Origin: Mobula hypostoma | Lineage: Eukaryota | NCBI RefSeq assembly: GCF_963921235.1 | Contig: NC_086097.1 | Span: 116,500,001 to 116,564,000, forward strand | Length of the DNA stretch: 64,000 nt | Direction: 5' to 3' | In this document: piece by piece, positions 19,930 to 57,374 of the stretch | How the letters are laid out: each line of letters starts with the position of its first letter | How positions within the stretch are numbered: position 1 is the stretch's first letter | The notes under the pieces: model-generated | Databases searched by the model: none | Told to the model about the DNA's origin: nothing | Seen by the model: only the letters and a program-made list of their open reading frames with translations | Program-made: the position numbers and the translations under genes

Positions 19930-20190
19930 TCCTTTACATTCCCATACAGAAGGTCCAATGTTTTATTGTCTTGTGTAGGACAATGGCACTGCCTGCATCA
20001 TTTACATTCGCATACAGAAGGTCCAGTGTTTTGTTGTCTTGTGTAGGACAACGGGACCGTCTGCAATCTTTACATTCACATACAGAAGGTCCAGTGTTTT
20101 GTTGTCTTGTGTAGGACAACGGGACCGTCTGCATCCTTTACATTCTCATACAGAAGATCTAGTGTTCTATTGTCCTCTGTAGGGCAGCAG
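19930..20190. repeat. 68-bp tandem repeat, ~4 copies, inside the LINE endonuclease region
   Basis: catacagaag recurs at 19943, 20011, 20079, 20147. Confidence 0.9.
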
Positions 20191-20219
20191 CCATATTGAT
20201 AAAAAGTAGGTATTGTTGC

Positions 20220-21078: not shown

Positions 21079-21694
21079 TTGCCTAGAGAGAAACATGATT
21101 AAAATCCCCAATAGCAGCCACAGAAGCACTGGGATATTGAGTTGGTATTCTAGCGATGGTCGAAAGAATAGCATCACATACTACATTCATATCAGCCCAT
21201 GGTTAAATGTAAACAACAACTAAAACAGCAGTTGAGAATTCCCGAGACAAATAATATGGTTGTATCCCAATGGCTAAGAGCTCGATGTCCGGGCGACATA
21301 AACGTTCCTTTACAGCAACATGCCTGGGATAATCACCTTTCATTCACAAACACTGCAATCCCTCCTCCCTTCTTCTTACCGCTCACTGTACCTGCCCACT
21401 TGGACGGTCTTGAAGCCAGGTATGGTGGGACAATGGTCCAGAAAATGTGCAGGTAGCCAGGTCTCAGTTAAGCACAAAACATTGCACTCCTGGTATTCCC
21501 TTTGGGTCTTAATCAGTGCACCAAGCTCGTCCATCTTATTTCCCAAGCACCTCACGTATCCCATGATAATCGCAGGGACAGAAGGTTTATACTTCCTCCA
21601 CTTAGCCTTAATCTTCACTCCAGCCCTGCAGCCTCATTGTCACCTCCTAAGCTCCTGCGGGATCTCGGGCCACTCTCTGGGCAGTAGGATTGGT

Positions 21695-24600
21695 TTATAC
21701 AATATTTGAGTAATATTGTAAATATATTGTTTGATTAAGCATTTTTGTTGGTTTACATGATTCATTATGGATTATATGTATAAAGTGTGATATTCTCACC
21801 CCACACATTATATACGGTATGAGTGCTTCACTAAAGTAAAACTAAGTAGATATGTTATCCCAAGCTCCAGGGTTTTTTTATTAGTTTCTGGAGTTACAAA
21901 ACATAACAGTGGCAATGAGGAACTTTGAATGTGAACCCAAGCTGATTATCTACCTGTTGAGGTCCAGCACATTTTTTTCTTCAGAAGAGGAAGAGAGACA
22001 TCTAAGTTCTTAAACCAAAAAGCACAGCATGTCTTTATTTGGAAGGGAAAGAGAGAGACAGATATGTTAAAAACAAAGTTTTTAACAAACTGATGAAGTT
22101 AACAAGCAATGAGTATGGCCATAGGTTCATAGACCATGAATAACGAGTGGCAATAATAATAAATCAATAAAAGAAACAGAAATAGCTGGTTACATCAGAA
22201 AAATAGGTGCATTCATTTTCATGCCAGATAACTGGATGATGAACATTGAATAATTTGAGCAGTATTTTAAATAGCTAATGAAAAGCGAGTGGCAGTATTA
22301 CTGAGTGCAATCGGTGGAAAAGCATACACTTTGCTTAGAAGCTTAAATACTCCAGCCAAACCAGCTGAAAGGAGTTTTACTGATATTGGGAATGTAATGC
22401 AGGAACATGTAGAAGTGCTTTAGATTTATTAACCAGAATAAAAAAGAAGGGGAGTCCTTTTCAGCATAAGTTGTTGAACTAAAGAAATCGTCTGAGTATT
22501 GCCACTTCAGAGATGGGCTTAAGTATGCACTGAGAGACTGCTTAATTTGTGGAATCTTGCAAGAAAACATTCTAAAATGGCTCCTATTTGATGCACATTT
22601 AAAACAGCTGTTGAGATCACTGTTGGAGCGGAGTTAACGACATTATCGAACATGTCCGATATAAGCTGTTGGTCTAGCCCTGTTTTGTTTTTTGTTTGGT
22701 ATTTTTTTTCTTTTGGGTTTTTTTTTGTTTATATATATATTTTTATTTCTTTTTTAATGTTTAATCTCATTATGAGTTTGGAAGTCTTTTATATCTATGT
22801 TACTTAAAATTCATTTTATATATGTTGATGAACATTTTTCCAATCTCTTTGTACCAACTTTGTTATTGAGTTTGTAATTTTGAAAAATTAATTAAAAAAA
22901 TTTAAAAAGAAAAGAAAGAGGTCGCTGTATCAATGGAAAATGCAGACAAAGATGCAATTGAGTTGTAGTCAGAAATGAAGCTGAGCATGAACAAAATTAC
23001 AAACTCAGAACAGAAACCTGTCTGGCCAATCGAATTGTGTTACCATTGTGGCAGGGCCTCAGGTACACCAGACCAATGCAGGTTAAAAGGTGAAACTTAT
23101 AGAAAATGCAACAAATATACAAAGAGCATGTCAGGCAGATAAAAATAAATGGACTGCACAGGAATGAGAAGAATATAAAAAGTCAAGTTGTAGTTTCATA
23201 AGGAGCATTAATCTGCATGTTGTTGTTGAAAAATCATCATAATAATGAGAGTGGCACAGGACTGAGTAGCTTAGAGATTTAAAATGTGAAAACTAACAAA
23301 AGACAAGCAATATGGCTTACACCTGAAGTGAATAGCAATTTTTTTTAAAAATGGAATTAGACACTGGCTCAGTTGTTTCAGTCATTCCACAAAATGAGTA
23401 CGAATGGCATTTCAAAGATACCAAACTGAGGCCTGCAGATATCCAACTAAGAACTTATACTGAAGAAAAGATAACTCCGGTGGGAATGACATTCATGACA
23501 GTGAAATACAACCACCAACAAGCCATGTAGGGCTTGTATGTGGTAAAATCAAGAGGGGCAGCATTGTGGGACTCTGATAGGCTGAGACCACTAAAACTTG
23601 ATTGGAAATCAATCTACAATTTGCATGCCATATTTCCTGCAATATTGTAAAATGAAAGTGAATTACGAAAGATACTGGATGATGCAGCATTCAAGGATGG
23701 TACTGGAAAATTCAAACATATCAAAGCTAAAATAATGCTAAATAAAAATGCCATAGCCAATTAATCAAAAGCCCATCCATAGGGGATGAAGCAGTCAGCG
23801 AGCTGGACTGCATGGAGGCTGAAGTAATTCTTTCCAAGGTTGAGTGGAGCCCATAGTAGTAGCCAAGTGGAATGAGATTGTCACGATCTGCAGTGATTTT
23901 AAGATTACCATTAACTCAGTACTGAAAGTAGGTCAATATCCTCTGCCCAGGATAGTGGGTATCTTTTCTGGAAGAAAACACTTCAGCAAAGTGGAATCAG
24001 CTGAGGCCCACCTGCAGCTGGAGATGGAAGATGATTCCAAACTGTTTCTCACCATATACACTCAGAAAGGGCTTAATCACGAAAATAGGCTTATTTTTTG
24101 GAGTAGCATCTGCACCTGCACTCTGGCAGAAAGCTATGGACCAGGCTGCCCAGGCACCCAGTGTTACCTAGATGATATCATTGTTACCGATAAGGCTGAC
24201 AAGAAACATCTCTAAAATTTCAAGACACTTTAAATATATTAGAAGGTCATGAGCTCAGAGCACGACATGGCAAATGTGAATTCTTTAAACTAAGCATCAC
24301 TTACTGTGATCACACCATTAATATACAAGGATTACACAAGTATGCTGAGAAAATTCAAGCAGTGGTGGATGCCCCAAGGCCAAAGGATGTGTCATAGTTG
24401 CAGTCCTTTTTAGGAATTTTCAATTACTATAGCCGGTTCCTGCCAAACCTGGCTACTGTGCTGTACTCCTTGAACTCATTACTACAGCATGGAAAGAAAT
24501 AGCAATGGAGAAAGCAGTGTGAGGTGGCCTTCCAACAGCCAGAGGAAATGGTGACGGTAGACAGTGAACACACACATTATGATCTACATCATCCAGTGAA

Positions 24601-25190
24601 ACTTGCCTGTGTAGAAGCGCTGTAATGTCACATGTTATGAGTGGTGAAAGTGAATGCCCCATAGCCTTTGCATCATGTTTTCTTACCGCTGCAGAGAAAA
24701 ATCATGCACAGTTTGATAGAGTGGCCTTGAGTCTGGTCTAGGGTGTAATATGTTTCAATCAGGACCCACATGTGGGAGAGAATTTACCCTCATTACTGAT
24801 CCTCAACCATTTTCAATCCACAGAAAGATGTTCCATGAACAGCAGCAGCACAAATGCAGCAATGGGCTCTCTTTCTTGAAGGACACAGTTACGAGATCGA
24901 ACTCAAGAGAACAACCAATCATGAAAATGGTGTTGGATTGCCCTGGTTACCCCTGGAAAAGGAGATAGCTGGAAAAATTTACAAAAAAGGACTCTCCTCT
25001 TGTCGTATTTTCCCTAATGCAAATCAAAATATATACAGATGACGAACACAAGTTGATTTTCATTCTATATTGAATTGGAGTTTAGAGCAAAGCATTAGTG
25101 CTGTGTATTTAATATTTCAGTAATACTGGAGTAATAATTTAAAGATACCTTGTTTGATTAAGCATTCTTCCTTTGTTTACGCAATTCACT
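21695..25190 (+). mobile_element. Decayed Gypsy-type LTR retrotransposon (gag, protease, RT, RNaseH remnants; integrase core missing)
   Basis: 5' LTR ends at 21908, followed by gtggcaatgagg (TGG-type PBS); zinc-knuckle remnant CYHCGR; protease MELDTGS; RT ICSDFKITIN..QYPLPRI and CYLDDII; partial 3' LTR from ~25099. Confidence 0.85.
22624..22917 (+). mobile_element. 5'-truncated LINE (L1/Tx1-like) 3' end inserted in Gypsy gag
   Basis: T-rich body, A-rich tail, diverged 11-bp TSD gagatcactgt (22613-22623) / gaggtcgctgt (22918-22928). Confidence 0.65.
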
Positions 25191-25257
25191 GTGCCATGTC
25201 AGTCAATACATTCTGTTGCTACACTCCATATGAAACCCAGTGGTACAGTCCAGTCTT

Positions 25258-25590
25258 AGAAACACAGAAAAACCTACAGCACAATACACGCCCTTCAGTT
25301 CACAAAGTTGTGCCGAACATGTCCCTACCTTAGAAATTACTAGGGTTACCCATAGTCCTCTATTTTTCTAAGCTCCGTGTGCCTATCCAAAAGTCTCTTT
25401 AAAGACCCTATTGTATCCGCCTCCACCACCGTTGCTGGCAGCCCATTCCACGCACTCACCACTCTCTGAGTAAAAAACTTACCCCTGACATCTCCTCTGT
25501 ACCTATTCCCAAGCACCTTAAACCCGTGTCCTCTTGTGGCAGACTTTTCAGCCCTGGGAAAAAGCCTCTGACTATCCACACGATCAATGT
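25258..25590 (-). mobile_element. CR1 LINE 3' fragment
   Basis: TRGHGFKV...RGKFFTQRVVSAWNGLP, the CR1 ORF2 C-terminus. Confidence 0.85.
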
Positions 25591-25770
25591 CATCTTGTTG
25601 GGCTCCCCTATTATGTTAAGGAATGACTTCCCTCCCAACCCCCACCCACCTCCTAAGGCAGGCCAGGCTTACTTCTGAAATGTTTTCATAAAAATGGAAG
25701 GTGTTAAAAGGTTGATTGTTCATTTCCTTCCATAGATGCTGCCTGATCTTTTGAGTTCCTCCAGAGCTTT

Positions 25771-25783
25771 GTGTGTGAGTGTG

Positions 25784-25824
<41 letters not shown>
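25771..25824. repeat. (GTGAGT)n/(GT)n microsatellite
   Basis: Direct reading. Confidence 0.95.
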
Positions 25825-25827
<3 letters not shown>

Positions 25828-26535
25828 CACGTTGTTCCTAATTACTTCACTGTAAAGTTGTTCATGATTTAAAAGAAATTAGCTTTTTAAAACTCCTTTT
25901 TCAAATTTTAATTGCGAATAAGTGGTCCAAACAACAGACAAACCTCCAGCCAATCTGCATTGCCTTCACGACAGTTTGAGGACAAGCACTGGCCTTAGAA
26001 AGCATGGGCCTATTTGTCCCTGAAGCCTGATTGGTCAGCCTCTAGCCTTGTTCAGAACCCCAGACCTTCTCCCAGAAAGCCTCAGGAGAATATTTGTCAA
26101 CCCACATATTTTTTGCTATCAGCTGATTGTCAACCATTTTGGAATCACCTTGATAAGGAGCGCAGAGACAACAGAGAGTTGTGGCCACAGCTCAGCAGAT
26201 CATGAAAACCAATCTCCCCTCAAGGATTCTATGTTTCTTGTTTCCTCTCTGCCTTGGTGAAGCAATCAACATAGTCAAAAACTCCTCCTATTGGGCAGTA
26301 GACACAAAAGTCTGAAAATACGTACCACCAGGATCAAACACAGTTTCTATCTTCTTGCTATAAGACTGCTAAATGGTCCCCTAGTATGACAAGGTGGACT
26401 CTTGACCTTACAAACAGCCTCATTATGTTCAGGCACCTTATTGTCTGCCCACACTGCACGTCCTGTCTAAGTAGAACACCTTATTCTGCGTTCCGTTGTT
26501 GCTTTTCCCTTGTCCTAGCTCAATGCGCTGCTGTA

Positions 26536-27607
26536 ATAGAAACATAGAAACATAGAAAATAGGTGCAGGAGTAGGCCATTTGGCCCTTCGAGCCTGCACC
26601 GCCATTTATTATGATCATGGCTGATCATCCAACTCAGAACCCCGCCCCAGCCTTCCCTCCATACCCCCTGACCCCCGTAGCCACAAGGGCCATATCTAAC
26701 TCCCTCTTAAATATAGCCAATGAACTGGCCTCAACTGTTTCCTGTGGCAGAGAATTCCACAGATTCACCACTCTCTGTGTGAAGAAATTTTTCCTAATCT
26801 CGGTCCTAAAAGGCTTCCCCTCTATCCTCAAACTGTGGCCCCTCGTACTGGACTTCCCCAACATCGGGAACAATCTTCCTGCATCTAGCCTGTCCAATCC
26901 CTTTAGGATCTTATACGTTTCAATCAGATCCCCCCTCAATCTTCTAAATTCCAACGAGTACAAGCCCAGTTCATCCAGTCTTTCTTCATATGAAAGTCCT
27001 GCCATCCCAGGAATCAATCTGGTGAACCTTCTTTGTACTCCCTCTAAGGCAAGGATGTCTTTCCTCAGATTAGGGGACCAAAACTGCACACAATACTCCA
27101 GGTGTGGTCTCACCAAGGCCTTGTACAACTGCAGTAGTACCTCCCTGCTCATGTACTCAAATCCTCTCGCTATAAATGCCAGCATACCATTCGCCTTTTT
27201 CACCGCCTGCTGTACCTGCATGCCCACTTTCAATGACTGGTGTATAATGACACCCAGGTCTAGTTGCACCTCCCCTTTTCCTAATCGGCCACTATTCAGA
27301 TAATAATCTGTTTTCCTATTTTTGCCACCAAAGTGGATAACTTCACATTTATCCACATTAAATTGCATCTGCCATGAATTTGCCCACTCACCCAACCTAT
27401 CCAAGTCACCCTGCATCCTCTTAGCATCCTCCTCACAGCTAACACTGCCACCCAGCTTCATGTCATCCGCAAACTTGGAGATGCTGCATTTAATTCCCTC
27501 ATCCAAGTCATTAATATATATTGTAAACAACTGGGGTCCCAGCACTGAGCCTTGCGGTACCCCACTAGTCACCGCCTGCCATTCTGAAAAGGTCCCGTTT
27601 ATTCCCA
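26536..27607 (-). mobile_element. Young 5'-truncated CR1 LINE with uninterrupted RT C-terminal reading frame (26634-27607)
   Basis: SGVPQGSVLGPQLF, KFADD, LVRPHLEYCVQFW, RGHSL, FFTQRVVNLWNSLP without stops; (TTTCTATG)n octamer tail at 26536-26558. Confidence 0.95.
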
Positions 27608-29202
27608 TGGATAACATGCAAAACCAAGATTTTCCCTGTATTTATTTACTTTATTTAGAGATAGAGCACAGAACAGGCTCCTCTGATCTATCGAGTTACT
27701 ACGCAGAGCAACCCACACGTTTAACCCTAGTCTAATCACGGAACAATTTACAATGACCACTGAACCTACTGTGGGAGGAAACCGCAGCACCGGAGGAAAC
27801 CCATGTGCTCACGGGAAGGATGTACAAACTTCTTACAGAGGGTACGACAATGGAACATCAAACGCCAATGCCCCAAGCTGTAATAACATTGTGTAAGTAC
27901 CATGATGCCTTTATTAGTACGTGTGACAATAATGAACCAATTAATCAATTTAAATTAAAGACTGGCAATCAGCTAATTAGTGTTATCCAATTCATAGTGT
28001 GGCTCATTGACCCTGGTCCAAAACCCATGGACATGTGAACAATAGGCCATTGAACAACAGTGTAGAGCAATCCACACAGAAAACACTGGAAATACTCTCC
28101 AGGTCAGGCAGCATCTGTGAAAAAGAGAAACAGTTGATGCTTCAGATCAAAGACCATTCACCAAAACTGGGAGAGGAAGCAAGTTAGTCAGTTTGGTAGA
28201 GAAAGTGGAGGAGGGAAACGAGTGGAACAAAGGGGATGCGTGTAATAGGGTGAAATGGTGGGCAGCCATTAAATGGGCAGTTTAGCTCTTTGGCCTGTGT
28301 GTTGTGAAGCTGACGCCGTGAAGTCTGGCCACTATGATGAATCCTTACCCCTTTCCATCCCCTCAGTTCCTGCTCATCGCCTCAAGAGCTCAAGAGCTCT
28401 TTGCAATGCTGTTCTCAAAAACATAAGAGTGTCATTTTCTGTGTTGGCCGACACAAGTATGACAGTTTATCAATTCCTTCTTTGTCCACAGATTGCGACT
28501 ATCCCAATTCTGTGATATTGAGCTGAAAATGGATCAGGCCTTGTGCTCTGATGTGGGGAGGGGAGAAAGTAGAAATAAATCTCACATTCCCCATGTGCAG
28601 GTGTAATTGAGAAGACATTGTGGAATGGGGGAGAATTTGGATGGGAGAAAATAAAGTCTGTTTAATCTCACCAGTACACATTTTCACTGATGATCTAAAT
28701 AGACACCAAGACATTGTCAAATTGCTTTTATATTCTCTCTGTCACATACTTACAACTTAAAATGATAGCATAGCTGTTAGTGCAACACTCTTACAGCTCC
28801 ATGCTTTCTCTGGAGTTCAGAGATCACCACCTGTAGTGAGTCTGTGAGTTCTCACCCTGAACGGTGCAGGTTTTCTCCGGCTGCTCCAATTTCCACCCAC
28901 AGCCCAAAGATGTACAAGTCAGTATTTTAATTGGTCATTGTAAACTGTCCTGTGATTAGTCTAGGGTCAAATAGGTTGGTTGCTGAGCTGTAGAGCTTGA
29001 TGGGCTGGAAAGAGCCTGTTCCGCTCTGCATCACCAAACAAATGAATAATATCACATGCCCGATTGTAAAACTTATCTCTTGCAACACTTTAAGAGTTCA
29101 ATAGGTATGTTTAATGTCAGAGAAATGTATACAATATACATCCTGAAATTCTTTTTCTTCGCAAACAACCATGATAACAGAGTACTGCCCCAAAGAATAA
29201 CG

Positions 29203-29895
29203 ATTAGATTAGATTAGATTAGATTATGAGGACACTCAGTCCTCATTTATTGTCATTTAGAAATGCATGCAAGCATTAGGAAATAGTACAATGTTCCTCC
29301 AGAGTGAGAGCACAAAAAAAACTCGACAAACCAAAGACTAACACTGACAAGACCACATAATTATAACATATAGTTACAGCAGTGCAAAACAGTACCATAA
29401 TTTGATAAAGAGCAGACCATGGGAATGGTAAAAAAAAAGTCTCAAAGTTCCGAATGACTCCCGATAGTCACAATAGCAGGTGGCAGAAGGGAGAAACTCT
29501 CTCTGCCATAAACCTCCAGGCACCAACAACTGTCGATGCATTGGAAGCACCCGACCACAGCCGACACTGAGTCCGTCCAAAAACTACGAGTCTCCGACCA
29601 GCCCTTCGACACCGAGCACCGAGCGCCATCTCTGCTGAGCGCTTCGAATCCGTCCCGGCCACCGAGCAACAAGCAAAGCCGAGGACTTGGTGCCTTCCCC
29701 TCCGAACATTCAGGATCACACAGTAACAAAGGTAGTGAAATAGGCATTTCAGAAGTTTGTGCAGATGTTCCTCCATTCTCTCACATCTGTCTCCATCAAA
29801 TCAGGATTGTGCACGGCACCCTGCTTAACAGATAACAGATATCATTCACCGGAGTGGCCGTGCAAGCTGCGTCGCGCCACCATCTTCTCCTCCTC
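29203..29895 (-). mobile_element. ORF-less non-LTR-like retroelement with (AATCT)n tail and AAGATGG head
   Basis: (gatta)n at 29202-29226; reverse complement starts ggaggagaagatggtggcg; homologous to 47462-48150 and 58989-59607. Confidence 0.8.
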
Positions 29896-30062
29896 CTGAA
29901 TGACAGCTAAATTTAGAACTCCAAAGCTCCCCCAGCTCCCCCCACCCATGCACAAGCAGCAGTATGGCAATGACACCCCCACCCCAAGCACTCAAGCGTG
30001 CCGCAAAGCATCAATAAAGACACAGATTTATAGTACCCCAAAGACTACTCATTTACCCAATA

Positions 30063-31609
30063 CACGTTTCCCCTGCCATCTGAAGGTAGAGCATTCCTAT
30101 GAAACGGTTCATAAGCCAAAATGTCGTAAAGCGAAGAAGCAATTACTATTTATTTATACGGGAAAATTTTGTGAGTGTTCGCAGACCCAAAAATATCCTA
30201 CCAAATCATGCCAAATAACACATAAAACCTAAAATAACAGTAACATATAGTAAAAGCAGGAATGATATGATAAATACACAACCTATATAAAGTAGAAATA
30301 CTTTTCCACAATCATTACTGAACCATTCTCCGTAGCGAAAATCTCACGCAAGCGCTGTTGGCAAGAACACTCTCTCCAGTAACCTTTAAGCTATGAAGCT
30401 GCTAAATCATACCAAATAACACATAAAAATACACAGCCTATATAAAGTAGAAATAATGTATGTACAGTGTAGTATCACTTACCGGAATCGGGACAGCGCC
30501 AAGCAGACTGATGATGGTGTGTTAGACTGAGTTGTCGCAGGCTGTCTGGTGCAGTGGCCCCCACCTTCCAGGCCACCAACCGATACCGATCTGCGAAGCA
30601 TGCTGGGGTCCAGCGGTAGCCGGGAGGTACACAGCACATCTTTAAGAAAAAAGCTGAAACAAACATGCTAATTAATTAGGTGCCACCGACACGTAATTGT
30701 CGACCCAGATCAGAGACGACGCAATTGGAAATCGGCACTGATCTGGGCCGACAATTACGTTTCGGCGGCACCTAATTAATTAGCATGTTAATTTCGGCTT
30801 TTTTCTTAACGATGTGCTGTGTGCCTCTTGGCTACTTTTGCATTCTCCGCGAATCAGTATCTGTCCGCGGCCTGAGGGTTGAGGTGGTGGGACACTGGGG
30901 TGTCATCTCGTCATCTGTTTCCATTAGGGCAGGCAGCTCATCTTCTTCTATCTCTGCCCGCCTCGATGTCGCAGGTAGAGGTTCGTCGTCTGATGTGGCT
31001 GATGTGGAAGGCTTGCTTGACTGCTGAGCCTCGCGCATTTTTCTATCACACAGTTCTTCAACAAGGACTCAAACCATCCTGAAAATATCTCCTAAACTGA
31101 TGTACTCTTTCAAAATTAAAGTCATACTTTATCATTACTTATTGGGTTTCGATTATTATCCTTTTTTCTTCCAATTGCATCAGCTCTTCATCTGTCAGTT
31201 CTTGGTGAGGGGATGCCAAAACCTCTTCAACATCATGTTCGTCAGCTTCCACAAGCCAAACTCACATTGTCCTTACGTCGTTCACCACGTTCAAAATGTT
31301 TAATTATGTCTAGTTTTACCATAAGTGTAACATCCTTACGCGCTCTTTCAGGCTTTTCCGATACCATAGAACTCATCTTGCAAATGGCTGCTCACAGGCA
31401 CGTGTTAAGGCAATGCCGTTCCGAATCCGGAGGTGAGTGGCTGCTCGGGGCGCGCTGCCTTTTATCGCGCGCTAATTTTTTATCACACGCTGAATTTTTG
31501 TTTCGTAACAGTGAAAACACCTTCTGAGAGTGAAAACAGGGTACTAATGTAGGTCTTTCGTAACAGTGAAGTTTCGTAAAGTGAACGTTCGAAAAGCGGG
31601 GGACACCTG
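30063..31609 (-). mobile_element. Internally deleted Tigger/pogo-type DNA transposon
   Basis: TA at both sides (30061-62, 31610-11); imperfect TIRs CACGTTTCCCC / CAGGTGTCCCC; minus-strand MVSEKPERARKDVTLMVKLDIIKHFERGERRKD (CENP-B/psq HTH) near 31367-31265 and acidic C-terminal remnant; no DDD core. Confidence 0.85.
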
Positions 31610-32549
31610 TATTCGACATACCACAGGCTTTCTTTCTCTCCCTAATAAGGGAAAAAGAGGTGTCCCTGTTTCAGAGTGAAAGGGGAGATATAATAAAACA
31701 ACTCACTGATTTATGGTGTTAAAAGTCCGTTGCGTCGCTTTTTCCAAACTCTGTGATTCTGGGCACACAGCTAACAGCAAGCCCACTGCCTCTGATCTTT
31801 CTTACTCTCCTGTGACGCATCAGTTGGTGGCACCAGCCTTGAATCAGCCCACCTCCAGAGCCATGAAAATCTTGCACGTTGAAGTTGCGCTAGCCTTCCA
31901 GGCCACGTGCTTGACATATCGAAAAGTGGCCGCTCATGAGGCCCTGAGAGCAGGTCCCATTCCCGCAAAGAACTGAAGTCGGAGTGTAATGCCAAATCAG
32001 GGTTATCAAAGGAACCTTGGAAAGGAAAAAAATAGGTATCAAAGATAAAAATAAAGCTGTTTCCAAAGATGGTAGCAAAGGAGTAGCCATTGAGAGCCAT
32101 CATCACTAAGTTGGAAGTTGACTTTAAGTTACACTAAACAGACACAACATCAGGACCATCACTTAAGTATACAATCAATGAACAGGTTGGGAAAAGCTGG
32201 CAGCGCTCTCCATTCATTGAAATCAGCAGCTGCTACCAGTTTAATATCTTGACTGCAATGCAATGAATGGGCATGTCATAATCATGTACTAGAACCCTCA
32301 AAGCCATTCAGTCCTGACAGTACATTCAATCCAGACCAGATGGGCTGAAGGGCCTGTTTCTGTGCTGCCATGGTATATGACTCTGGTATCTGATGAATTA
32401 AAACCACATTAATTATTTTAAATGCTAATTCAGAAACAGTTCAGAATCAAAATCAAATTTATCATTATAGACATATCTAGTGAAATCCGGTGTTTTGTGG
32501 CAGCAGTGCAATACGTAAAAAGGGACTTAACTTAAAAGGAAATAAAAAT

Positions 32550-33102
32550 AAATACTTAGTAGGAACCTTCAATCAGTGGCCTCTTCAGTAGCTACAATGG
32601 CCACTGAGTATATCTTCGTGATCTTCTGTTGCTGTAGCCTATCCACTTCAAGGTTTGACATCTGTATTCAGAAATGCTCTTCTGCACATCGCTGTTGTAA
32701 CATATGGTTATTGGGTTACTGATGCTTTCCCGTCAGCTTTAACCTGTCTAACCACTCTCCTAACTTTTCCCATTAACAAGGTATTTTCACCCACTGAACT
32801 GCAGCTCACTGGAAGTTTTTTTTTATTTCTCACACTATTCTCTGTAAACTCTACAGATGGTTGTGTGTGAAAATCCAAAGACATCCACAGTTTCTGAAAT
32901 GCTCACACTACCCTGTCTGGCACCAAAAATCACTCCATTGTCAATTTCACTTAGATCACATTTCTTTCACTTTCTAATATTTGGTCTAAAGAATGACTGA
33001 ATCTCTTGATCATGTCTGCATCACTTTATGCATTGAGTTGCTGCCACAGAATTGGCTGATTAGAGAATTGCATCAATAAGCAGGTATGAAGTGACCACTG
33101 AG
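32550..33102 (-). mobile_element. Non-autonomous Tc1-like element
   Basis: Reverse complement of the 5062/9679 family; ends aagtgaccactgag. Confidence 0.75.
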
Positions 33103-33399
33103 CTGGGGGAGGCCCTGGTGGCTCTGAGCAAATACCACATTTGGCATAAGTTCCCATTGCTGCATTCTATCTGGAATGGCAAGAGGATGACATGTCTCTC
33201 AAAGTCCAACCCTACGTCCCCACCATGAAAGGTGGAAATTGGTAAGGCCGGCTAGCAGGGATCTGGTGAAGCTGTACAGGCCAGTCTCCTGTACAGTGGA
33301 TAGAATGGATTTCAGAAACGTTGATGAACTCCAACCATACCATCGACTTTGTGAGTAGAGTCTAATCATTGAGAAGGCATGTGATACAGCACAGGGAAA

Positions 33400-36090
33400 G
33401 TCATCGGGATCCTTCACAGTCACCAAAGTCCATTTCTACCTTGGGTACTTGGACCGTGAAAACCACGTACCAGGCAGGAAAATCCACCATCATTGGAAAT
33501 GAGATAAAAAAGTATAAACTGTCAATTCTTGAAGTGAGTGACACAAGACGGACATCATCTGGAGAAACTCGACTGACAGGCAGGACAAGTATCGTCTGCT
33601 CAGGCTACCAGAGCAATGATGCACTACATAGAGAGGGAGCAGCCTTCATGATGACACCAGAAGCACGTAGAGCCATCATCTCATGGGAAGCCATCAGTTG
33701 CAGAATCATTGCTGCTAGCTTTAAAACCAAGTACTAGAAGGTAACAGCTCAAGTTATCCCACGTTACGCACCAAAAGATGGCACTAATGAAGAAGACAAA
33801 GATGAGTTCTGCAATGCATTCAGTGGAAAAAGACCTGATTTTTATCATGGGAGATTTTACTGCCAAAATAGACATGGATAATACAGGATCTGTACGAGTC
33901 ATGAGGAAAATGTGTCTCAGAGAAATGAATGAAAATGAGGAACGATTTGCTTAAACTTATGCTAACTTCAATCTAGTTATTGGAGGAAGTTTATTCCCAC
34001 ACAAGGCAACATGGTTGTCACCAAACAAGATAACAGAGAACCAGATCAAGAATGTATGCATCTCAAAGAAGTTTCAAAAATCACCATTTCTGATCACCAA
34101 AGTACAGATGCAGCTAAAAAGAAGCTACACACCACCCAATCAGTGACTAAAACACAATGTGAACTACCTGAAAGACAAAGGAACAGCTTGGAGATTTGCC
34201 CTCACAATTTCCGACAAGTTCAACACACTTGAGGAACTTGATATTGAAGATACATGGACTGCTTTCAAAGAGGCGATAAATGAAACTTGTAAGGAAGTGC
34301 TGGGAAAAAGGGCAATGAGCATAAGGAGTGGATTACAACAGGAGTGAGGGGAACAATTACCAAGAGGCAAAACTAAAAGAAAAATGCAACAAAAGCAGAA
34401 CTAGGAATGAGAAAATAGAGGCACATGAAGGGTGTGCAAGGAAGTAAGAAGAAACATCAAGAGGGACAGGAGAGAATACATCTGCATTCCAAGCAGAAGT
34501 GCCAGCAAATGGACATATGAAAGAACTATACGATACTATCAAGAAACTAGCCAGCAAATTCAACAAGATCAACATCCAAGAGGAGGTTAAAGATGGAAAT
34601 GTCCGAACTAAAGAAGATAAACAGCTCCAACACTGGACACAGCCCTTCAATGAACTTCTGAACAGACCACCTCCTCCAGAATCTCCGTTAATTCCAGAAG
34701 CACCATCAGACTTGGATGTCAACTGTTTCAAGCCAACGAAGAAGAACATCAATGAAGTTAAAGACAGGAAAAGCAGCCGGCCCAGACAGCTTACCACCGG
34801 AGGCATTGAAGGCAGATCCTAAACTTTCAGCAGATATCCTATACACTTTCTTCTACAACACCTGGGACAAAGAAGAGATGCCACAAGAGTGGAAGGAAAG
34901 TCACATAATCAAGCTGCCAAAGAAACTGTAAAAAACTACAGAGCTATATCCTTAACGTCTGTGGTTGGAAAAGTGCTAAATAGAATTATTCTGTGTTGCC
35001 TTCAACAAGCTGTTGAATCAATATTAATGGATCAACAAGCAGGTAGATCCCTTAAGAATAATCATAGAGCAGTCAGTCGAATGGAATATTTCTCTCTATG
35101 TCAACTTCATCAACTATGGGAAAGCCTTCAATAGCTTCAACAGAAACTAATGAAACATTATGGAACACCACAGAAATTTGTCAATATCATCAGAAACTCC
35201 TACAACAACATTTCCTGCAAAGTCATACATGTGGGAAACTGTCAGAAAGCTTGCATGTCAACACTGGGGTGAAGCAGGGATGTCTGATGGCTCCTTTCCT
35301 GTTCCTGTTGGCAACAGACTGGATTATGAAACAGACAACAAGTGAAAAATGAAATGGAAGCCAGTGGACTATGTGGCAGCAACTAGAGTTTGCAGGTGTC
35401 TAGCTCTAACCCTCTCGACCGCTAACTCCATCATGCTAGGTCTATGACCAAATGTAGGTAGAATGAAAGTGACGAAGATAAACTGCACCAGCAATAGACA
35501 CACAGTGATTATACAACCCTGGAAGAAGTGACTTCCTTTGTCTATCTTGGAAGCATTTTTAGTGTATATGGTGGACTGGATAAGGAGGCCAAAGCCAGGA
35601 TCAACAATGCCAGAATAGGTTTCAACATCTTGAAGAAAACGTGGACAGACAGAGTCATATCAAAGAAAACCAAAATCAGAATCTTCAACTCAAATGTTAA
35701 AACAGTGCTCCTATATGGCTCTGAAACCTGGAGAACAACAAAAAAAAAACTGCAGGCTATCATCGACCAGTGCCTGAGATCGATCTTCAAGATCAGATGG
35801 ACTGACAAAGTAACCAACCAGACTCTGTGGGAAAACACCAAAAATCCAATGAAATCCATGAATACACAACCAGAAATGGAGGTGGATTGGCCACACTTTG
35901 AGGAAACCAACCAAAAACATCACCAGGCAGGCATTAAAATGGAATCTCCAAGAAAAGAGGTAAAAGTCAGGTCCAAAGAACACATGGAGGAGGTATGCTG
36001 AGGTTGAAATTAAATGATTGGGACACTCCTGGTCCACCCTCGAGAAACTGGCTCAGAACAGGGGATGATGGAGGCGAGAGGCTTGTGCTC
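33400..36090 (+). mobile_element. Decayed RTE-clade LINE (APE + RT)
   Basis: LGTWTVKT..YKLSILEVSDTR, GKAAGPDSLPPEALK, GVKQGCLMAPFLF, KTKIRIFNSNVKTVLLYGSETW. Confidence 0.9.
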
Positions 36091-48150: not shown

Positions 48151-48697
48151 AATAATAATAAACTCCATAAATTACAATTAGAAGTATACAAAAAGATAAA
48201 TTAAATAAGTAGTGCAGAAAGAGAAATAAATAGTGAGGTAGTGCTCATGGGTTCATTGTCCATTCAGAAATATGATGGCGGAGGAGAAGAAGCCATTCCT
48301 GAAAGATTGAGTGTGTGTCTTTCGGCTCCTGTGGGCTCTTTGATTGGTAGCCATGAGAAGGGGGCATGCCCTGGGTGATGAGGGTCCTTAAAGATAAATG
48401 CCACCTTTTTGACGCATTGCTCATTGAAGATATCCTTGATGCAGGGGAGGCTAGTGTCCATGATGGAGCTGGATGAGTTTACATCTTCCTGCAGCTTTTT
48501 CCAATCCTGTGCAGTGGCCCCTCCATATCAGACGGTGATGTGACCAGTTAGAATGCTCTCCACAGTACATCTGTAGAGATTTGCGAGAGACTTTGGCTAC
48601 ATAAAAAGACTCCTGAAACTCTTAATAAAATATAGCAACACACGTAAAAGCTGCTGGTGAACGCAGCAGGCCAGGCAGCATCTCTAGGAAGAGGTAC

Positions 48698-48733
48698 AGT
48701 CGACGTTTCGGGCTGAGACCCTTCGTCAGGACT
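48698..48733 (-). ncRNA. Minimal type I hammerhead ribozyme motif
   Basis: AGUC CUGACGA A GGG UCUCAG CCC GAAAC GUC GACU: intact core, stem I AGUC/GACU, stem II GGG/CCC, palindromic ACGU in place of stem III. Confidence 0.75.
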
Positions 48734-50136
48734 AACTGAACGAAGAGCTAGCAAGAGATTTGAAAGTGGGAGGGGGAGATCCAAAATAATAGGAGAAGAC
48801 AGGAGGGGGAGGGATGGAGCCAAGAGCTGGACAGTTGATTGACAAAAGGGATATGAGAGGATCATGGGACAGGAAGCCTAAGGAGAAACAAAAGGGGGAG
48901 GGGGGGGAAACCAGAGGATGGGCAAAGGGTATAGTGAGGGAGACAGGGGGAGAAAAAGAATGTGTGTATATAAATAAATAACGGATGGGGTACAAGGGGG
49001 AGGTGGGGCATTAGTGGAAGTTTGAGAAGTCAATGTTCATGCCATTAGGTTGGAGGCTACCCAGACGGAATATAAGGTGTTGTTCCTCCAACCTGAGTGT
49101 GGCTTCATCTTGACAGTAGAGGAGGCCGTGGATAGACATATCACAATGGAAATGGGACGTGGAATTAAAATGTGTGGCCACTGGGAGATCCCGCTTTCTC
49201 TGGCGGACAGAGCGTAGGTGTTCAGCGAAACGATCTCCCAGTCTGCGTCGGGTCTCACCAATATATAAAAGGCAACATCAGGAGCACCAGACGCAGTATA
49301 TCACCCCAGCCGACTCACAGGTGAAGTGTCGCCTCACCTGGAAGGACTGTCTGGGGCCCTGAATGGTAGTGATCGCTCCCTACGCGACTTCTTTGTCCAT
49401 TTGTCCCCCCCATCCCTCCCCACCGATCTTCCTCGTGGGACTTATCCTTAGAAGCGGAACAAATGCTACACATGTCCTTACACTTCCACTCTCACAACCA
49501 TTCAGGGCCCCAAACAGTCCTTCCAGGTGAGGCAATACTTCACCTGTGAGTCGGCAGGGGTGATATACTGCGTCCGATGCTCCCGATGTGGCCTTCTATA
49601 TATTGACGAGACCTGACGCAGACTGGGAGATCTTTTCGCTGAACACCTACGCTCTGTCCGCCAGAGAAAGCAGGATCTCCCAGTGGCCACACATTTTAAT
49701 TCCACGTGCCATTCCTATTCTGATATGTCTATGCATGGCCTCCTCTGCTGTAACGATGAAGCCACACTCAGGTTGGAGGAACAACACCTTATATTCCGTC
49801 TGGGTAGCCTCCAACCTGATGGCATGAACATTGACTTCTCAAACTTCCGTTAATGCCCCACCTCCCCCTCGTACCCCATCTGTTATTTATTTGTATACAC
49901 ACCTTCTTTTTCTCCCTCTGCCCCCCCTCACTATACACCTTGTCCATCCTCTGTTTCTCCCCCCTCCCCCTTTTCCTTCTCTCTAGGCCTCCTGTCCCAT
50001 GATCCTCTCATATCCCCTTTACCTATCACCTGTCCAGCTCCTGGCTCCATCCCTCTCCCTCCTGTCTTCTCATATCATTTCAAATCTTCCCCTCCCCCTC
50101 CCACTTTCAAATCTCTTGCTAGCTCTCCCTTCAGTT

Positions 50137-50172
50137 AGTCCTGACGAAGGGTCTCGGCCCAAAACGTCGACT
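50137..50172 (+). ncRNA. Hammerhead motif, core-mutated copy (GAAA to AAAA)
   Basis: agtc ctgacga a gggtctcggccc aaaacgtc gact. Confidence 0.6.
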
Positions 50173-50992
50173 GTACCTCTTCCTAGAGATGCTGCCTGAC
50201 CCGCTGCGTTCACCAGCAACTTTTATGTGTGTTGCTTGAAATTCCAGCATCTGCAGATTTCCTCGTGTTTGTGGTAATAAAATATAGCCACTGCTGTGCC
50301 TTTATTTGTAATTACATCAATACGTGGGCTCAGGGTAGATCTCCAGAGATGTTGACACCAAGGAACTTGAAACTGTTCGCCCTTTCCACTTCTGATCCCT
50401 CTATAAAGACTGCTGTGTTTTCCCTCAAAGTCCCTTTGCTGAAATCCACAATCAATTCCTTGGTCTTACCAATGCTGAGTGCAAGGTTGTTGTGTAACAA
50501 CAAAGCATCAGTGTGAGGTTAGTCAGCTGTTCTGTTTCCATGCTTTTAATTCAGGACCAACAATCTCCCAGGACATCAGATATAATATTAATTATGCAAA
50601 ATGAAGTAAATGGGATGATTTATACCTGCCCTTGGTATAATGGCTCACCTAAAAACCTCATTCCACAAAGGGTGGTATTGCACCATACACCAATCCCTTG
50701 GCAGTCAGGGATTTTGTTACAATGCCTTGAAATGGGCCTGGAAGCTATGTCTTTCACTTCAGACAGAATGGAGTTACAAATGAGCCTTGCTGACAACCAT
50801 TAAATACAATGGATAAGCTCCATTGATGAATATTTCTCAAGGCACTCAACAGGGAGGGATCCCATGTGACCAATTAACCTACCTATCTGTCTGTCTTTGA
50901 AAAATGGGAGGAAAGCAGAGCACCTGGAGGAAACCCACGTGGTCATGGGAAGAATGTACAAACTTATTGGTTTATTTAAGATACGGTGAATT

Positions 50993-52682: not shown

Positions 52683-52804
52683 TAGCATGCTACCTTCCAG
52701 TAACAAGATAAAGGACATCATGAAGAGAGACAGTGGCTAGACAGAGACTAGATTGGAGATCTAGTCAGTGGTATGTGCTGCAAATGAAATTATAGAATGG
52801 GATT

Positions 52805-53033
52805 TGTGGTAAACCATGTATATATGTTGTAACTCGGTTACCCGCCTGGACACACACCTCTGCTGACTGCCCCTGTGGCTCCTCCCACAGAGTCCTGTAT
52901 AAAGGTATTCGCCTTGCCCCTCCCCCTCAGTCCGGGGGCAGACACTTACTGTGGAGGTCGTATTGTACAGCGAATAAAAGTCTTTCAGTATTTTACCAGA
53001 TCTCAGTCTTTTGGAGTAATTGAAGGTGCTTCA
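52805..53033 (+). repeat. 5' LTR
   Basis: TATA-like gtataaag ~52897, AATAAA 52973-52978, direct repeat of 57084-57312. Confidence 0.97.
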
Positions 53034-53059
53034 ATTTTATTTGCTGTACATTTTAAAAC

Positions 53060-54857
53060 ATGGAACAGGTCCCTGAGACCAGACAAATTAGACCTCGATC
53101 CACAAATGCCTGACGCTGGAAACGCTTTCGAACTCTGGCTGGCCTGCTTCGAAGCGTATCTAGAGGAGATTAAAGCGACCGACCCCATAGCGAAGCGCAG
53201 AGTTCTACTCTCCAGGGTCAGTCCACGGGTCTATTCGCTGATCAGAGACCAGCCGAACTACGACGGCGCGATGAACGCACTCAAAAGACAATACCTGCAG
53301 CCGATAAACAGCGTCTATGCTCGGCATCGCTTAGCAACACGGCAACAACGGTCTGGGGAATCGAGTGCTGAGTTTGTCCGGGCCCTACAGACACTTGTGC
53401 GGGCCTACAATTGCCAGGAGCTGACAGCGGCGCAGCATGCAGAACTCCTAGTGAGAGACGCCTTCGTTATGGGGACCAGGTCAGTGTACGTGCGCCAGCG
53501 GGAGCTGGAAAAAGCCGATCTTACCCTAAGTTCGTCGATTGAGCTGGCTGATACGTTGGAGGCCACTCTGCATAACTTCAAGGCTCTCCAGGCACGCGAT
53601 CCCCCGATGGCCTCGTGAGTGTCGCAGACCCCGCAACCCGCCGGCGAATTGACCTCGGATGCAGCCAGTCGTGAGTCCGCGAAGTGCTACTTCTGCGGAC
53701 TGGAGAAGCACCCCCGGAAACGCTGTGCGGCCCGACAAGCTACCTGTTCCAGTTGCGGAAAGAAGAGCCACTTCGCCAAGGTCTGTAAGTCAAAACCGGG
53801 AGCGGGATTGAGCAGCACCGTGTGCGAGACGTGGGGGTCGCCATCTTCCCTGCACACTGCCACCACGTGGGAGACATGGGGGCCACCTTCTTCCCTGCCG
53901 CCATCTTCCCTGCACGCCGCCACCACGTGCGAGACGTGGGGGTCGCCATCTTCCCTGCATGCCACCACCACGTGCGAGACATGGGGGCGGCCATCTTGGT
54001 CGGCGCCACCTCCCACTGCCTACGACCAACGGGTGCTCACGGGGCACCCCATCACGCCGGACCAAGACAGCGACCCCACCCTGGCTTCCGTGACCCTCGA
54101 CCAAAGCGCTCGCCACCAGTTCGCAAGGTCAATGATGGACATCCTGGTGGAGGGGCACAGGACAAGCTGCCTGCAGCATGGAGAGTTTTATCCACCCGGC
54201 CACGGTGCAGCATTGTGGACTCATGATACGGCCGGTAAGTCGGAGGGTCACCATGGCCTCCAGGTCGCATACAACAGACATCCGGGGGGGTTGTGTAGCG
54301 ACACTAGTGGTGCAGGGCACAGAATATCGGGACTTCATGTTACTGGTCTTGCCTCAACTGTGTGCCCCTGTGTTGTTGGGGTTGGACTTCCAGAGCCACC
54401 TGAAAAGCGTGACAATGAAGTATGATGGGCCCCTCCCACCAATTACTGTCATAAATCCCCTGTTTTGTAGAGCTATGTCATGTACCCCGCTACTGACCAC
54501 ACACCCACACCGACCCGCGTATCCCACCCAACATCATGCCAACTGCCACACTACCGACACCACTTGCGGCCTCTCCACCCTCAGGATCCCTCTCCCACCG
54601 CTGTTCACCAACCTGACCCCCGACTGTAAACCCGTGGCAACTAAAAGCAGGAGGTACAGCGCGGGGGACAGAGCTTTCATTAAGTCAGAGGTGCACTGGC
54701 TGCTTAGGGAGGGGATCATTGAAGCAAGCACAAGTCCTTGGAGGGCGCAGGTGGTCGTTGTTCGGAACAGGGAGAAGAATAGATGGTCGTGGACTATAGC
54801 CAGACCATCAATAGGTTCACGCAGCTCGACGCGTAACCTCTACCCCGCATCGCGGAT
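53060..54857 (+). pseudogene. gag: Disrupted gag-protease-RT N-terminus
   Basis: ATG 53060 is out of frame with LRPDKLDLDPQ; stop at 53616; two CCHC knuckles CYFCGLEKHPRKRC and CSSCGKKSHFAKVC; protease D(T/S)G triad absent at TSCL|..ESFIHP; frameshift ~54783 and TAA ~54834. Confidence 0.9.
53822..53997 (+). repeat. In-frame 45-bp tandem repeat (CETWGSPSSLHxxTT) in the gag-protease linker
   Basis: gtg(c/g)gagac at 53822, 53867, 53927, 53972. Confidence 0.9.
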
Positions 54858-57014
54858 ATGGTCAATCAGAAAGCACAGTACAAGGTGTACTCGACCATAG
54901 ACCTAAAATCCGCTTATCACCAGCTCCTCATCCGCCGGGAGGACCGCCCTTACACTGCCTTCGAGGTGGACGGCAGGCTTTATCAATTCCTGCGCGTCCC
55001 CTTTGGTGTCACGAATGGTGTATCTGTCTTCCAGAGGGCAATGGACCAGATGGTGGACCAGTGCCAACTGAAGGCCACGTTCCCATATCTGGATAACATC
55101 ACCATCTGCGGTCACGACCAGCAGGATCATGACAACAACCTCCAAAAATTTCTCCAAGCGGCCAAATCTTTCAACCTCACTTATAACAAGGACAAGTGTG
55201 TATTTGGGACCACCCGACTTGCTATCCTTGGGTGTGTCGTGGAGAATGGAGTCACTGGCCCTGATTCCGACCGTATGCGCCCCTTGTTGGAACTCCCTCT
55301 TCCCAATACCCTCAGAGCCCTCAAAAGGTGCCTGGGCTTCTTTTCATATTACGCCCAATGGGTCTCTAACTATGCAGACAAGGCCCGCCCCCTGGTCAAG
55401 TCCACCACATTCCCCCTCTCTGCCGAGGCCCACATGGCCTTCAGCCGCATAAAAGGGGACATTGCCAAAGCAGCAATGCAGGCGGCGGATGAGGCCATTC
55501 CCTTCCAAGTAGAGAGTGACACCTCCGACTTTGCGCTGGCTGCTACCCTCAACCAGGCAGGAAGACCAGTGGCGTTCTTCTCCCGTACCCTTCAAGGCCC
55601 TGAAATTCGGCACTCTGCAGTAGAGAAAGAGGCCCAGGCCATAGTGGAAGCTATAAGGCACTGGAGGCACTATCTTGCCGGCAAAAGGTTCACCCTGCTA
55701 ACTGACCAGCGCTCAGTTGCGTTCATGTTTAATAATCAGCAGCGGAGCAAAATCAAAAATGATAAAATTCTGAGGTGGAGAATCGAACTCTCCACCTACA
55801 ACAATGATATCATGTACAGGCCTGGGAAGCTCAACGAGCCCTCCGATGTCCTATCCCGGGAAACGCGCGCCAGCGCGCAGATCGACCAGTTATACGCCCT
55901 ACATGTAGACCTTTGCCACCCGGGAGTCACCCGGCTTTTCCACTTCGTGAAAGCCCGGAACCTGCCTTACTCCCTTGAGGAGATCAGGACGATGACCAGG
56001 GACTGCCAAGTCTGCGCAGAGTGCAAACCGCACTTCTACCGACCCGAAAAGGCACCACTCATCAAGGCCACCCGCCCCTTTGAGCGACTGAGTGTTGACT
56101 CTAAGGGCCCCCTTTCCTCCACCGACCGCAATGTGTACTTTCTTAACGTAATTGACGAGTACTCGCGGTTCCCCTTCGCCATCCTCTGCCCCGACACCAC
56201 TACCACGTCAGTTATAAAAGCCCTGCGCAAGCTCTTCACTCTGTTCGGATACCCATGCTATATCCACAGTGACAGAGGGACCTCGTTTATGAGTGACGAG
56301 CTGCGCCAATATCTACTGGCGAGGGGAATTGCAACCAGTAGGACCACAATCTATAATCCCCGGGGGAATGGACAGGTGGAGAAGGAGAATGCCACGGTGT
56401 GGAAAGCCACACTCTTAGCCCTCAGGTCAAAGGGACTGCCGGTCTCCCGCTGGCAGGAGGTCCTACCCGAGGCACTCCACTCCATCCGCTCTCTGTTATG
56501 CACGTCCACCAATGCCACCCCTCATGAGCGGCTCTTTTCTTTTCCCCGAAAATCGACCACTGGAACCACCCTACCAACTTGGCTGACGTCCCCGGGGCCA
56601 GTGCTGCTTCGGAAACATGTGAGGAGCAATAAATACTCCCCGATAGTCGAGATGGTTCACTTACTTCATGCGAACCCCCAGTATGCCTATGTGGCTTTAC
56701 CTGATGGGCGGGAGGACACGGTCTCCATCCGCGACCTGGCGCCCGCAGGAGCTCCGGGCCCTTACCCTGAACACTCCGTGGTGACTATTGACCCCATACC
56801 CACCAATGTATGTACCTACAAGACACCATGCACCCCAAACCCTATACAGACACCACACAAAACTCCCATACCGGGCGTGACGCACACGCAAGAGGGATTA
56901 CCGACGCCTAACGTGCTGGCACCTGAAGTCAGGCCGGAGCCAACACAACCGCCATCGCCGGTGCTACGTAGATCACAGCGACGGACTCGACCGCCTGATA
57001 GATTTAACCTGTAA
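54858..57014 (+). CDS. pol: Pol remainder: RT, RNase H, integrase (open 718 aa; native N-terminus lost by upstream lesions)
   Basis: IDLKSAYHQ, VPFGVTNG, YLDN, SDTSDFA..EKEAQAI..TDQ, HVDLCH..CQVC, SVD..HSDRG..GNGQVEKEN. Confidence 0.9.
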   Translation: MVNQKAQYKVYSTIDLKSAYHQLLIRREDRPYTAFEVDGRLYQFLRVPFGVTNGVSVFQRAMDQMVDQCQLKATFPYLDNITICGHDQQDHDNNLQKFLQAAKSFNLTYNKDKCVFGTTRLAILGCVVENGVTGPDSDRMRPLLELPLPNTLRALKRCLGFFSYYAQWVSNYADKARPLVKSTTFPLSAEAHMAFSRIKGDIAKAAMQAADEAIPFQVESDTSDFALAATLNQAGRPVAFFSRTLQGPEIRHSAVEKEAQAIVEAIRHWRHYLAGKRFTLLTDQRSVAFMFNNQQRSKIKNDKILRWRIELSTYNNDIMYRPGKLNEPSDVLSRETRASAQIDQLYALHVDLCHPGVTRLFHFVKARNLPYSLEEIRTMTRDCQVCAECKPHFYRPEKAPLIKATRPFERLSVDSKGPLSSTDRNVYFLNVIDEYSRFPFAILCPDTTTTSVIKALRKLFTLFGYPCYIHSDRGTSFMSDELRQYLLARGIATSRTTIYNPRGNGQVEKENATVWKATLLALRSKGLPVSRWQEVLPEALHSIRSLLCTSTNATPHERLFSFPRKSTTGTTLPTWLTSPGPVLLRKHVRSNKYSPIVEMVHLLHANPQYAYVALPDGREDTVSIRDLAPAGAPGPYPEHSVVTIDPIPTNVCTYKTPCTPNPIQTPHKTPIPGVTHTQEGLPTPNVLAPEVRPEPTQPPSPVLRRSQRRTRPPDRFNL

Positions 57015-57083
57015 ATATACTTCTTGTAAATATTGTCAGTCACTTCACCCCACGGGACTCTTTTTAAAAAAAGGAGGAGTGAA

Positions 57084-57312
57084 TGTGGTAAACCATGTAT
57101 ATATGTTGTAACTCGTTTACCTGTCTGGACACACACCTCTGCTGACTGCCCCTGTGGCTCCTCCCACAGAGTCCTGTATAAAGGTGTTCGCCTTGCCCCT
57201 CCCCCTCAGTCCGGGGGCAGACACTCACTGTGGAGGTCGTATTGTACAGCGAATAAAAGCCTTTCAGTATTTTACCAAACCTCAGTCTTTTGGAGTAATT
57301 GAAGGTGCTTCA
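57084..57312 (+). repeat. 3' LTR
   Basis: Direct repeat of the 5' LTR, preceded by PPT. Confidence 0.97.
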
Positions 57313-57374
57313 GGATATCTGTTGTTATAATCCCTGCAGAACTGTCTGAAATGGGCAAGATAATTGGACTCCTT

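Follow-up and report, generated by a model that had tools for sequence, protein, structure and literature searches.

Tf1 is the only element for which priming of reverse transcription by the element's own RNA has been resolved, and in the literature consulted this mode of priming counts as a mark of the Tf1/sushi chromoviruses (PMC7175516, bioRxiv 10.1101/2022.12.06.519325). [quoted passage not shown] Self-priming has also been predicted from sequence for a plant copia lineage, TAR (PMC6317226); both the mechanism itself and its prediction outside chromoviruses are thus already known.

The window analyzed here, a 64,000-nt stretch of the Mobula hypostoma genome, contains a Gypsy element of ~4.5 kb (52805-57312) that is multicopy in this genome. 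Like Tf1 and Tf2 of Schizosaccharomyces pombe, Tj1 of S. japonicus and the Tf1/sushi group, it has no tRNA site, and the PBS beside its 5' LTR can pair with its own LTR RNA; the likeness extends to an 11-pair core and to a U5 helix beside the primer end (PMC7175516, PMC4600332, bioRxiv 10.1101/2022.12.06.519325, PMC6317226). The plant Ty1/copia elements TAR, Houba and Osr-1 likewise display a self-priming signature outside chromoviruses, deduced from LTR complementarity (PMC6317226), although they belong to another superfamily and another kingdom. The features of the element are as follows (window coordinates; R is the purine of the AAA/RCC junction, the slash marking the predicted cut).

52800..52804 GGATT (left) and 57313-57317 GGATA (right), no strand: target-site duplication of 5 bp
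52805..53033, + strand: 5' LTR, 229 nt, TG...CA, 96.5% identical to the 3' LTR
52898..52904, + strand: TATA-like box TATAAAG, putative in function; A as first base in subfamily B
52926..52932, + strand: initiator-like CTCAGTC, start A predicted at 52929, 31 nt from the TATA box
52964..52979, + strand: self-primer candidate, the LTR strand of helix P1; 3' end predicted at 52979
52973..52978, + strand: AATAAA, the LTR's last such hexamer, within the primer strand; putative poly(A) signal
52980..53028, + strand: U5 stem-loop P2, a predicted fold that begins at the AAA/RCC junction
53035..53050, + strand: primer-binding site, complementary to its own LTR; begins TTT, not TGG
53061..53800, + strand: gag, with twin CCHC knuckles at 53685-53786 and an in-frame stop at 53616-53618 (gag codon 186)
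54136..57014, + strand: protease, RT (YLDN motif), RNase H and integrase by Pfam; no SH3_Tf2-1, no chromodomain
57066..57079, + strand: polypurine tract
57084..57312, + strand: 3' LTR, 229 nt; the partner is duplicated identically at 57243-57258

This organization, with TG...CA LTRs, a target duplication, the order gag-PR-RT-RNaseH-IN and a polypurine tract, is that of a Ty3/Gypsy element, and the best PDB match of a relative (P0008) is Ty3 Gag-Pol (E 6e-63). The two LTRs carry 8 differences, the pol region is disrupted between about 54130 and 54840, and the window copy is dead, with a gag stop at codon 186 and more breaks before 54840. Three GC-rich tandem repeats of 45-60 nt occupy 53816-54014, coding sequence that separates the CCHC knuckles from the protease; relatives such as P0008 carry different repeats at this place. 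The RT motif reads YLDN instead of YxDD in 32 of 50 clade rows and YLDD in 10 (window ~55085-55096, relatives L031-L110); the literature we searched yielded no paper combining YLDN with gypsy and reverse transcriptase, and a conserved Asn in place of the motif's second Asp may be of biochemical interest.

The clade to which the element belongs stands apart from the known self-priming Gypsy elements. The twin CCHC knuckles of the window element, described by an earlier sequence-only reading, are present at 53685-53786; Pfam reports no chromodomain, and scanning gave the same answer for all 6 clade proteins (the window Pol and 5 relatives) while detecting the domain in both comparators. Its RT is 31% identical to nine local SH3_Tf2-1 elements and falls on a separate long branch, against 56% identity within the clade, in a FastTree phylogeny built with no outgroup and with Tf1 and other named references absent. 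The missing chromodomain and the 31% RT identity to local chromoviruses are the reason why we do not file the clade under Tf1/sushi, in agreement with that reading; membership is not assigned, and on this tree the clade may still be a sister of the chromoviruses. The lack of named references and of an outgroup is also why the clade is left unnamed. The Mag lineage has a twin CCHC gag and no chromodomain, and Mag membership was our first guess. The window element shares both traits but differs in its RT motif blocks: compared by eye, they do not match the rows published for Mag, Jule, SURL and Gulliver (PMC2871265 supplement 3). Against two partial RTs from the twin-CCHC TGG family of the window, the clade RT reaches 29% identity, and we dropped the assignment on both counts. 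The motifs PFGVT, YLDN and SAYHQ were absent from those PMC2871265 supplements that we searched, and motif searches of published supplements gave no name for the clade among the files covered. The Cigr-1 clade of Ciona, of similar size and LTR length, may be a relative.

The evidence for an unusual primer begins at the 5' LTR boundary. One base past the LTR, TTTTATTTGCTGTACA (53035-53050) is complementary to TGTACAGCGAATAAAA (52964-52979) within the LTR, a partner that includes the AATAAA at 52973-52978. The helix comprises 15 Watson-Crick pairs and one G:U and is mismatched at either end; the G:U deviates from the usual G-C, as most copies have C at 53042. Stems of at least 16 appeared in 1 of 2000 dinucleotide shuffles of the LTR, control stem lengths were 8 for the flank after the 3' LTR and 7 for the other Gypsy's site, and the fold had a z of -5.9, with equal stability in 0 of 200 shuffles. 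Sequence and shuffle tests therefore bear out the 16-nt complementarity (one G:U) in place of a TGG-type site from which the sequence-only reading set out, and the partner, placed there about 60 nt downstream of the TATA box, lies 61 nt from TATAAA (52898-52903). The further claim that the duplex can form only at the 5' LTR was overstated: the partner copy of the 3' LTR, identical in sequence, is also in the RNA, and 5'-specificity applies to the local hairpin only, not to the duplex in principle. Folding of the window copy predicted only P1 and one U5 helix, unlike Tf1, with no third helix of the pretzel type.

We then asked whether the two strands change together, the check that had been proposed for the pairing. 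An initial genome search returned 1639 candidates, and two main helix forms occur at ~577 and ~130 loci (1155 and 261 strand matches; control matches 0). Three gag queries from other families also recovered copies of the window family and its subfamilies. The copy alignment holds 186 distinct copies from 245 loci, after removal of 39 duplicates and 20 partial copies; the sample is non-random, as 126 of the 245 loci were collected with two search patterns in which parts of AATAAAA and TTTTATT are held constant. Among these 186 copies, the bases of three pairs have changed on either strand. Pair 52969/53045 is A-T in 101 copies, T-A in 77 and mismatched in 4; pair 52972/53042 is G-C in 96, T-A in 42, T-C in 5 and G-A in 2, the remainder being mainly CpG-type decay; and pair 52971/53043, scored in the T lineage in non-CpG context (n=46), is C-G in 26, T-A in 15 and other in 5. 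These two-sided switches amount to three nested events, copies of one lineage not being independent. The generic pattern TAAARCC...CAATTTA gave 2535 matches in the same genome, below the 5596 of its control. In a recombination-breakpoint test on LTR haplotypes, with the breakpoint predicted after the cut, partial correlations were opposite in sign between the 186 copies and 79 subfamily-B copies.

Related families extend the comparison, with close protein relatives in rays and sharks (73-94%) and in corals, Trichuris and Trichinella (about 60%). We fetched 90 outside loci, 43 of which had a gag start and enough upstream DNA to be judged and which, together with the window, make up 25 families; the remaining 47 had no gag start or too little upstream DNA and were left out of the count, among them L046 and L048, where the 92 and 118 nt available upstream of the gag start contain no partner, and L078, with only about 7 bp of pairing. 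All 25 judged families have an 11-20-bp stem, a PBS starting 2 nt after CA and a partner in their own LTR. The register was chosen by maximal pairing beside a CA (L071 was shifted 2 nt by hand), and the CA in 25/25 families is not independent because the search required it; in 8 families, the point where the 3' LTR meets unrelated flank independently sets the LTR end to within 2 nt. Taking the first-listed member of each family, pairs 1-11 contain 273 Watson-Crick pairs, 2 G:U and 0 mismatches among 275, Watson-Crick pairing continues at pair 12 in 24 families and at pair 13 in 23, and it declines beyond. When the PBS of one family was matched to the LTR of another, the mean stem fell to 5.5 bp and reached at least 11 in 6 of 702 combinations. 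Parsimony on the RT tree requires the LTR strand of pairs 1-11 to have changed 48 times and the PBS strand 49 times; ~48 changes are matched on both strands across the 25 families, and the cross-family form of the covariation check also came out positive. It is the pairing rather than the sequence that is conserved, which makes a fixed host primer very unlikely. In L037, L040, L049 and L051 the helix reaches or enters the gag AUG, where an effect on translation is possible.

The end of the helix is conserved as well. The last three bases of its LTR strand are AAA in 24 of the 25 families; RCC, which usually opens the U5 hairpin, comes next in 22, and the triplet after the junction is GTC in the window copy and GCC in most copies. 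An AG stands exactly 11 nt before the AAA/RCC junction in 18 families, against at most 4 at other offsets. Compared with Tf1/sushi, the clade's helix is usually longer, at 13-18 bp, ends at AAA/RCC and often does so on a poly(A) hexamer. G:U pairs are scarce in P1 (2/275) compared with U5 pairs (41/256), the latter being predicted pairs. A near-pure Watson-Crick helix would be explained by a PBS re-copied from the primer in each cycle, and strict selection by a cutting enzyme would fit the scarcity of G:U as well. The shared junction predicts exactly where the cut would fall, a position against which RNA ends could be compared. All 6 clade rows inspected carry the catalytic motifs of RNase H, the candidate enzyme for this cut.

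Taken together, we consider it probable, at roughly 80%, that minus-strand DNA synthesis starts from the element's own RNA in a Tf1-like manner. This was the proposal of the sequence-only reading, and it is now backed by covariation within the family and across 25 families, with cleavage and priming modeled on Tf1. Inside the particle, the helix would lose its continuity with U5 through a cut at the 3' end of its LTR strand, at AAA/RCC next to the U5 hairpin, with the element's RNase H as the most likely enzyme. The released 3'-OH would be extended across U5 into a short cDNA of about 55 nt, which could jump to the 3' LTR via the ~20 nt that separate the cut from the expected poly(A) site, and plus-strand synthesis would probably re-copy the primer into the PBS. 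Under such re-copying, changes in the LTR would be followed closely by changes in the PBS. As a positive control, chromodomain elements of the same genome with the same layout gave 10-11 bp in 4 of 10 LTR pairs, and judged by sequence the genome appears to house two unrelated self-priming systems. Four elements of this genome with SH3_Tf2-1 or a chromodomain (L259, L260, L264, L267) carry a 10-11-nt self-complementary PBS ~170-220 nt from its partner.

Several other explanations of the helix deserve weight. A one-off inverted duplication without function could owe something to the palindrome TGTACA and the A-run of the partner, which raise chance pairing, but at least 3 pairs with matched changes within the family, ~48 matched changes across families and the 1 in 2000 shuffles make such an accident scarcely credible. 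Priming by a host tRNA, a tRNA half or another small RNA, with the LTR match being secondary, finds a parallel in the half-tRNA priming of some copia lineages (PMC6317226). A mature tRNA, though, ends in CCA and needs TGG, whereas the first three bases of the site are TTT in 24 of the 25 families and TCT in the other, and the ~49 PBS changes, three of them within one genome, follow the LTR and not a fixed host RNA. The best tRNA-Lys match to the PBS has 3 Watson-Crick pairs, from a search of the host for tRNAs that scored 60 matches, retrieved 30 loci and covered 5 distinct genes, all tRNA-Lys, with fragments outside its reach; we regard a host primer as highly improbable. Splice-junction priming was also considered and ruled out, since the PBS pairs with the unspliced LTR. 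A primer drawn from elsewhere in the element's own RNA is harder to distinguish by covariation. The partner copy of the 3' LTR, or a short RNA from a solo LTR, might act over a long range or in trans after being trimmed or cut to the AAA end: the 3' copy is identical and lies within the RNA ahead of the poly(A) site, it would yield equal covariation and Watson-Crick purity, and its use would keep the 35 nt between predicted start and partner as strand-transfer overlap. Folding models nevertheless give the local helix a probability near 1 once the PBS is made, so that it would outcompete a distant copy; should the RNA end ~20 nt past AAUAAA, the 5' copy alone would have the full RCC hairpin; and the literature consulted, as far as accessible, held no precedent for 3'-copy or trans priming. 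We therefore consider this route improbable.

The helix might also serve solely to hide the 5' poly(A) signal or to control gag translation, with another primer being used. HIV-1, which is primed by a tRNA, has a polyA hairpin within its LTR. The window element likewise places AAUAAA of the 5' copy in a helix, and a stem-loop over the HIV-1 5' signal is on record (PMC12789967), with the difference that the second strand in the window element is the PBS itself. Predicted folding leaves AAUAAA open until the PBS is transcribed and closes it thereafter, to an unpaired probability of at most 0.01 once 53052 is made, so the 5' signal would be exposed until about 60 further bases are transcribed; with a 3' end cut 20 nt downstream, the hexamer is predicted to be unpaired at 0.93-0.99, and with the 3' flank attached its accessibility is mixed. 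The hexamer is altered in 4 of 90 copies found via gag or LTR similarity, and the junction carries a canonical AATAAA or ATTAAA in 16 of the 25 families, while the helix extends to the gag AUG in several relatives. Against a masking-only role, 3 families have GATAAA or TTTAAA at the junction and 6 have none, leaving 9 of 25 without a canonical hexamer (L032 has AATAAA 26 nt downstream); a masking stem would tolerate G:U and need no exact start 2 nt past the LTR end; and the element would be left without any primer site. Such an exclusive role is quite improbable. The dual-function RNA switch suggested by the sequence-only reading stays a candidate: the predicted fold does hide AAUAAA after PBS transcription, but 9 families have no canonical hexamer for it to hide. 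Retroviruses silence the 5' poly(A) signal in several ways (PMC12789967), and masking is therefore not required. Alongside self-priming, hiding of the 5' AAUAAA is likely a by-product, and the folding models make a functional role for it a tentative suggestion. In subfamily B the TATA box (52898) reads AATAAA, giving each LTR two AATAAA hexamers ~80 nt apart.

If the element self-primes, the position of the primer within the RNA depends on where transcription begins. Among the 186 copies, conservation is 0.98-0.99 for ATAAAG (52899-52904) and averages 0.96 for CTCAGTC, versus 0.83 for the 21 nt following the TATA box; the spacing between the TATA box and the initiator is 30-33 nt in 75 of 76 copies scored for both motifs, and in most copies 51-54 nt separate the initiator A from the junction. 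The start is accordingly predicted at 52929, which would place the primer strand 35 nt inside the RNA and not at its 5' end as in Tf1. Contigs from four runs that are probably RNA yielded no starts, ends or poly(A) sites. Given self-priming, we lean slightly towards such an internal primer for the window family, a capped 51-54-nt fragment with its last 15-16 nt paired. In the relatives, the AG at -11 resembles an initiator at the Tf1 primer length, and in many of them the RNA's first 11-18 nt may serve as primer, like in Tf1; since pairs 12 and 13 also covary, these RNAs would have to start slightly upstream of the AG. The earlier view of the partner as internal to the RNA is thus plausible for the window family, with its conserved TATA box and initiator, but for relatives a Tf1-like primer at the 5' end is hinted at by the AG that 18 of the 25 families have at -11. 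The 5' end of the helix was tried as the start site and rejected, with a purine there in only ~8 of 24 families by a by-eye count. In one relative, L052 (LTR 2687-2988), a donor-like GT stands 220 nt ahead of the junction and a strong acceptor-like polypyrimidine-AG 42 nt ahead of it; if L052 RNA is spliced, it would start far upstream and the partner would be internal. L051 and L086 have weaker splice-like signals.

The most complete form of the preferred reading has a widespread animal Gypsy clade outside chromoviruses that self-primes, with the window family using an internal capped 51-54-nt leader cut exactly where its own poly(A) hexamer ends, and with one helix that would hide the 5' signal, set the primer end, leave a ~20-nt transfer overlap and be re-templated into the PBS each cycle. 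This form is unlikely to hold in full. Should self-priming itself be true, it would add a second, unrelated Gypsy clade, with protein relatives in rays, sharks, corals and nematodes, and would imply that tRNA-free priming either evolved a second time or has a greater age and frequency than supposed; elements annotated 'no PBS' would find an explanation as well. We found no description of priming in this clade in the open literature, the search having covered neither subscription papers nor Repbase nor some supplements, and scans of viral contigs returned nothing. Clade elements also occur in contigs filed as bacterial MAGs in GTDB (L246-L255), which are probably eukaryotic contamination.

The surroundings of the element hold further repeats. 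The second Gypsy of the window was described from the sequence as having an ordinary TGG-type PBS, and this was upheld: downstream of the TGG at 21910 lie a decayed twin-CCHC gag and a protease (21910-23500), with 6754 candidates in the genome, and neither an LTR partner nor an RT was found within 16000-34000. A long nested inverted repeat with 435-nt arms of 92% identity occupies 48634-50274, and four related fragments, which we take to be Tc1-like, lie near 5.1, 9.7, 14.0 and 52.1 kb of the window.
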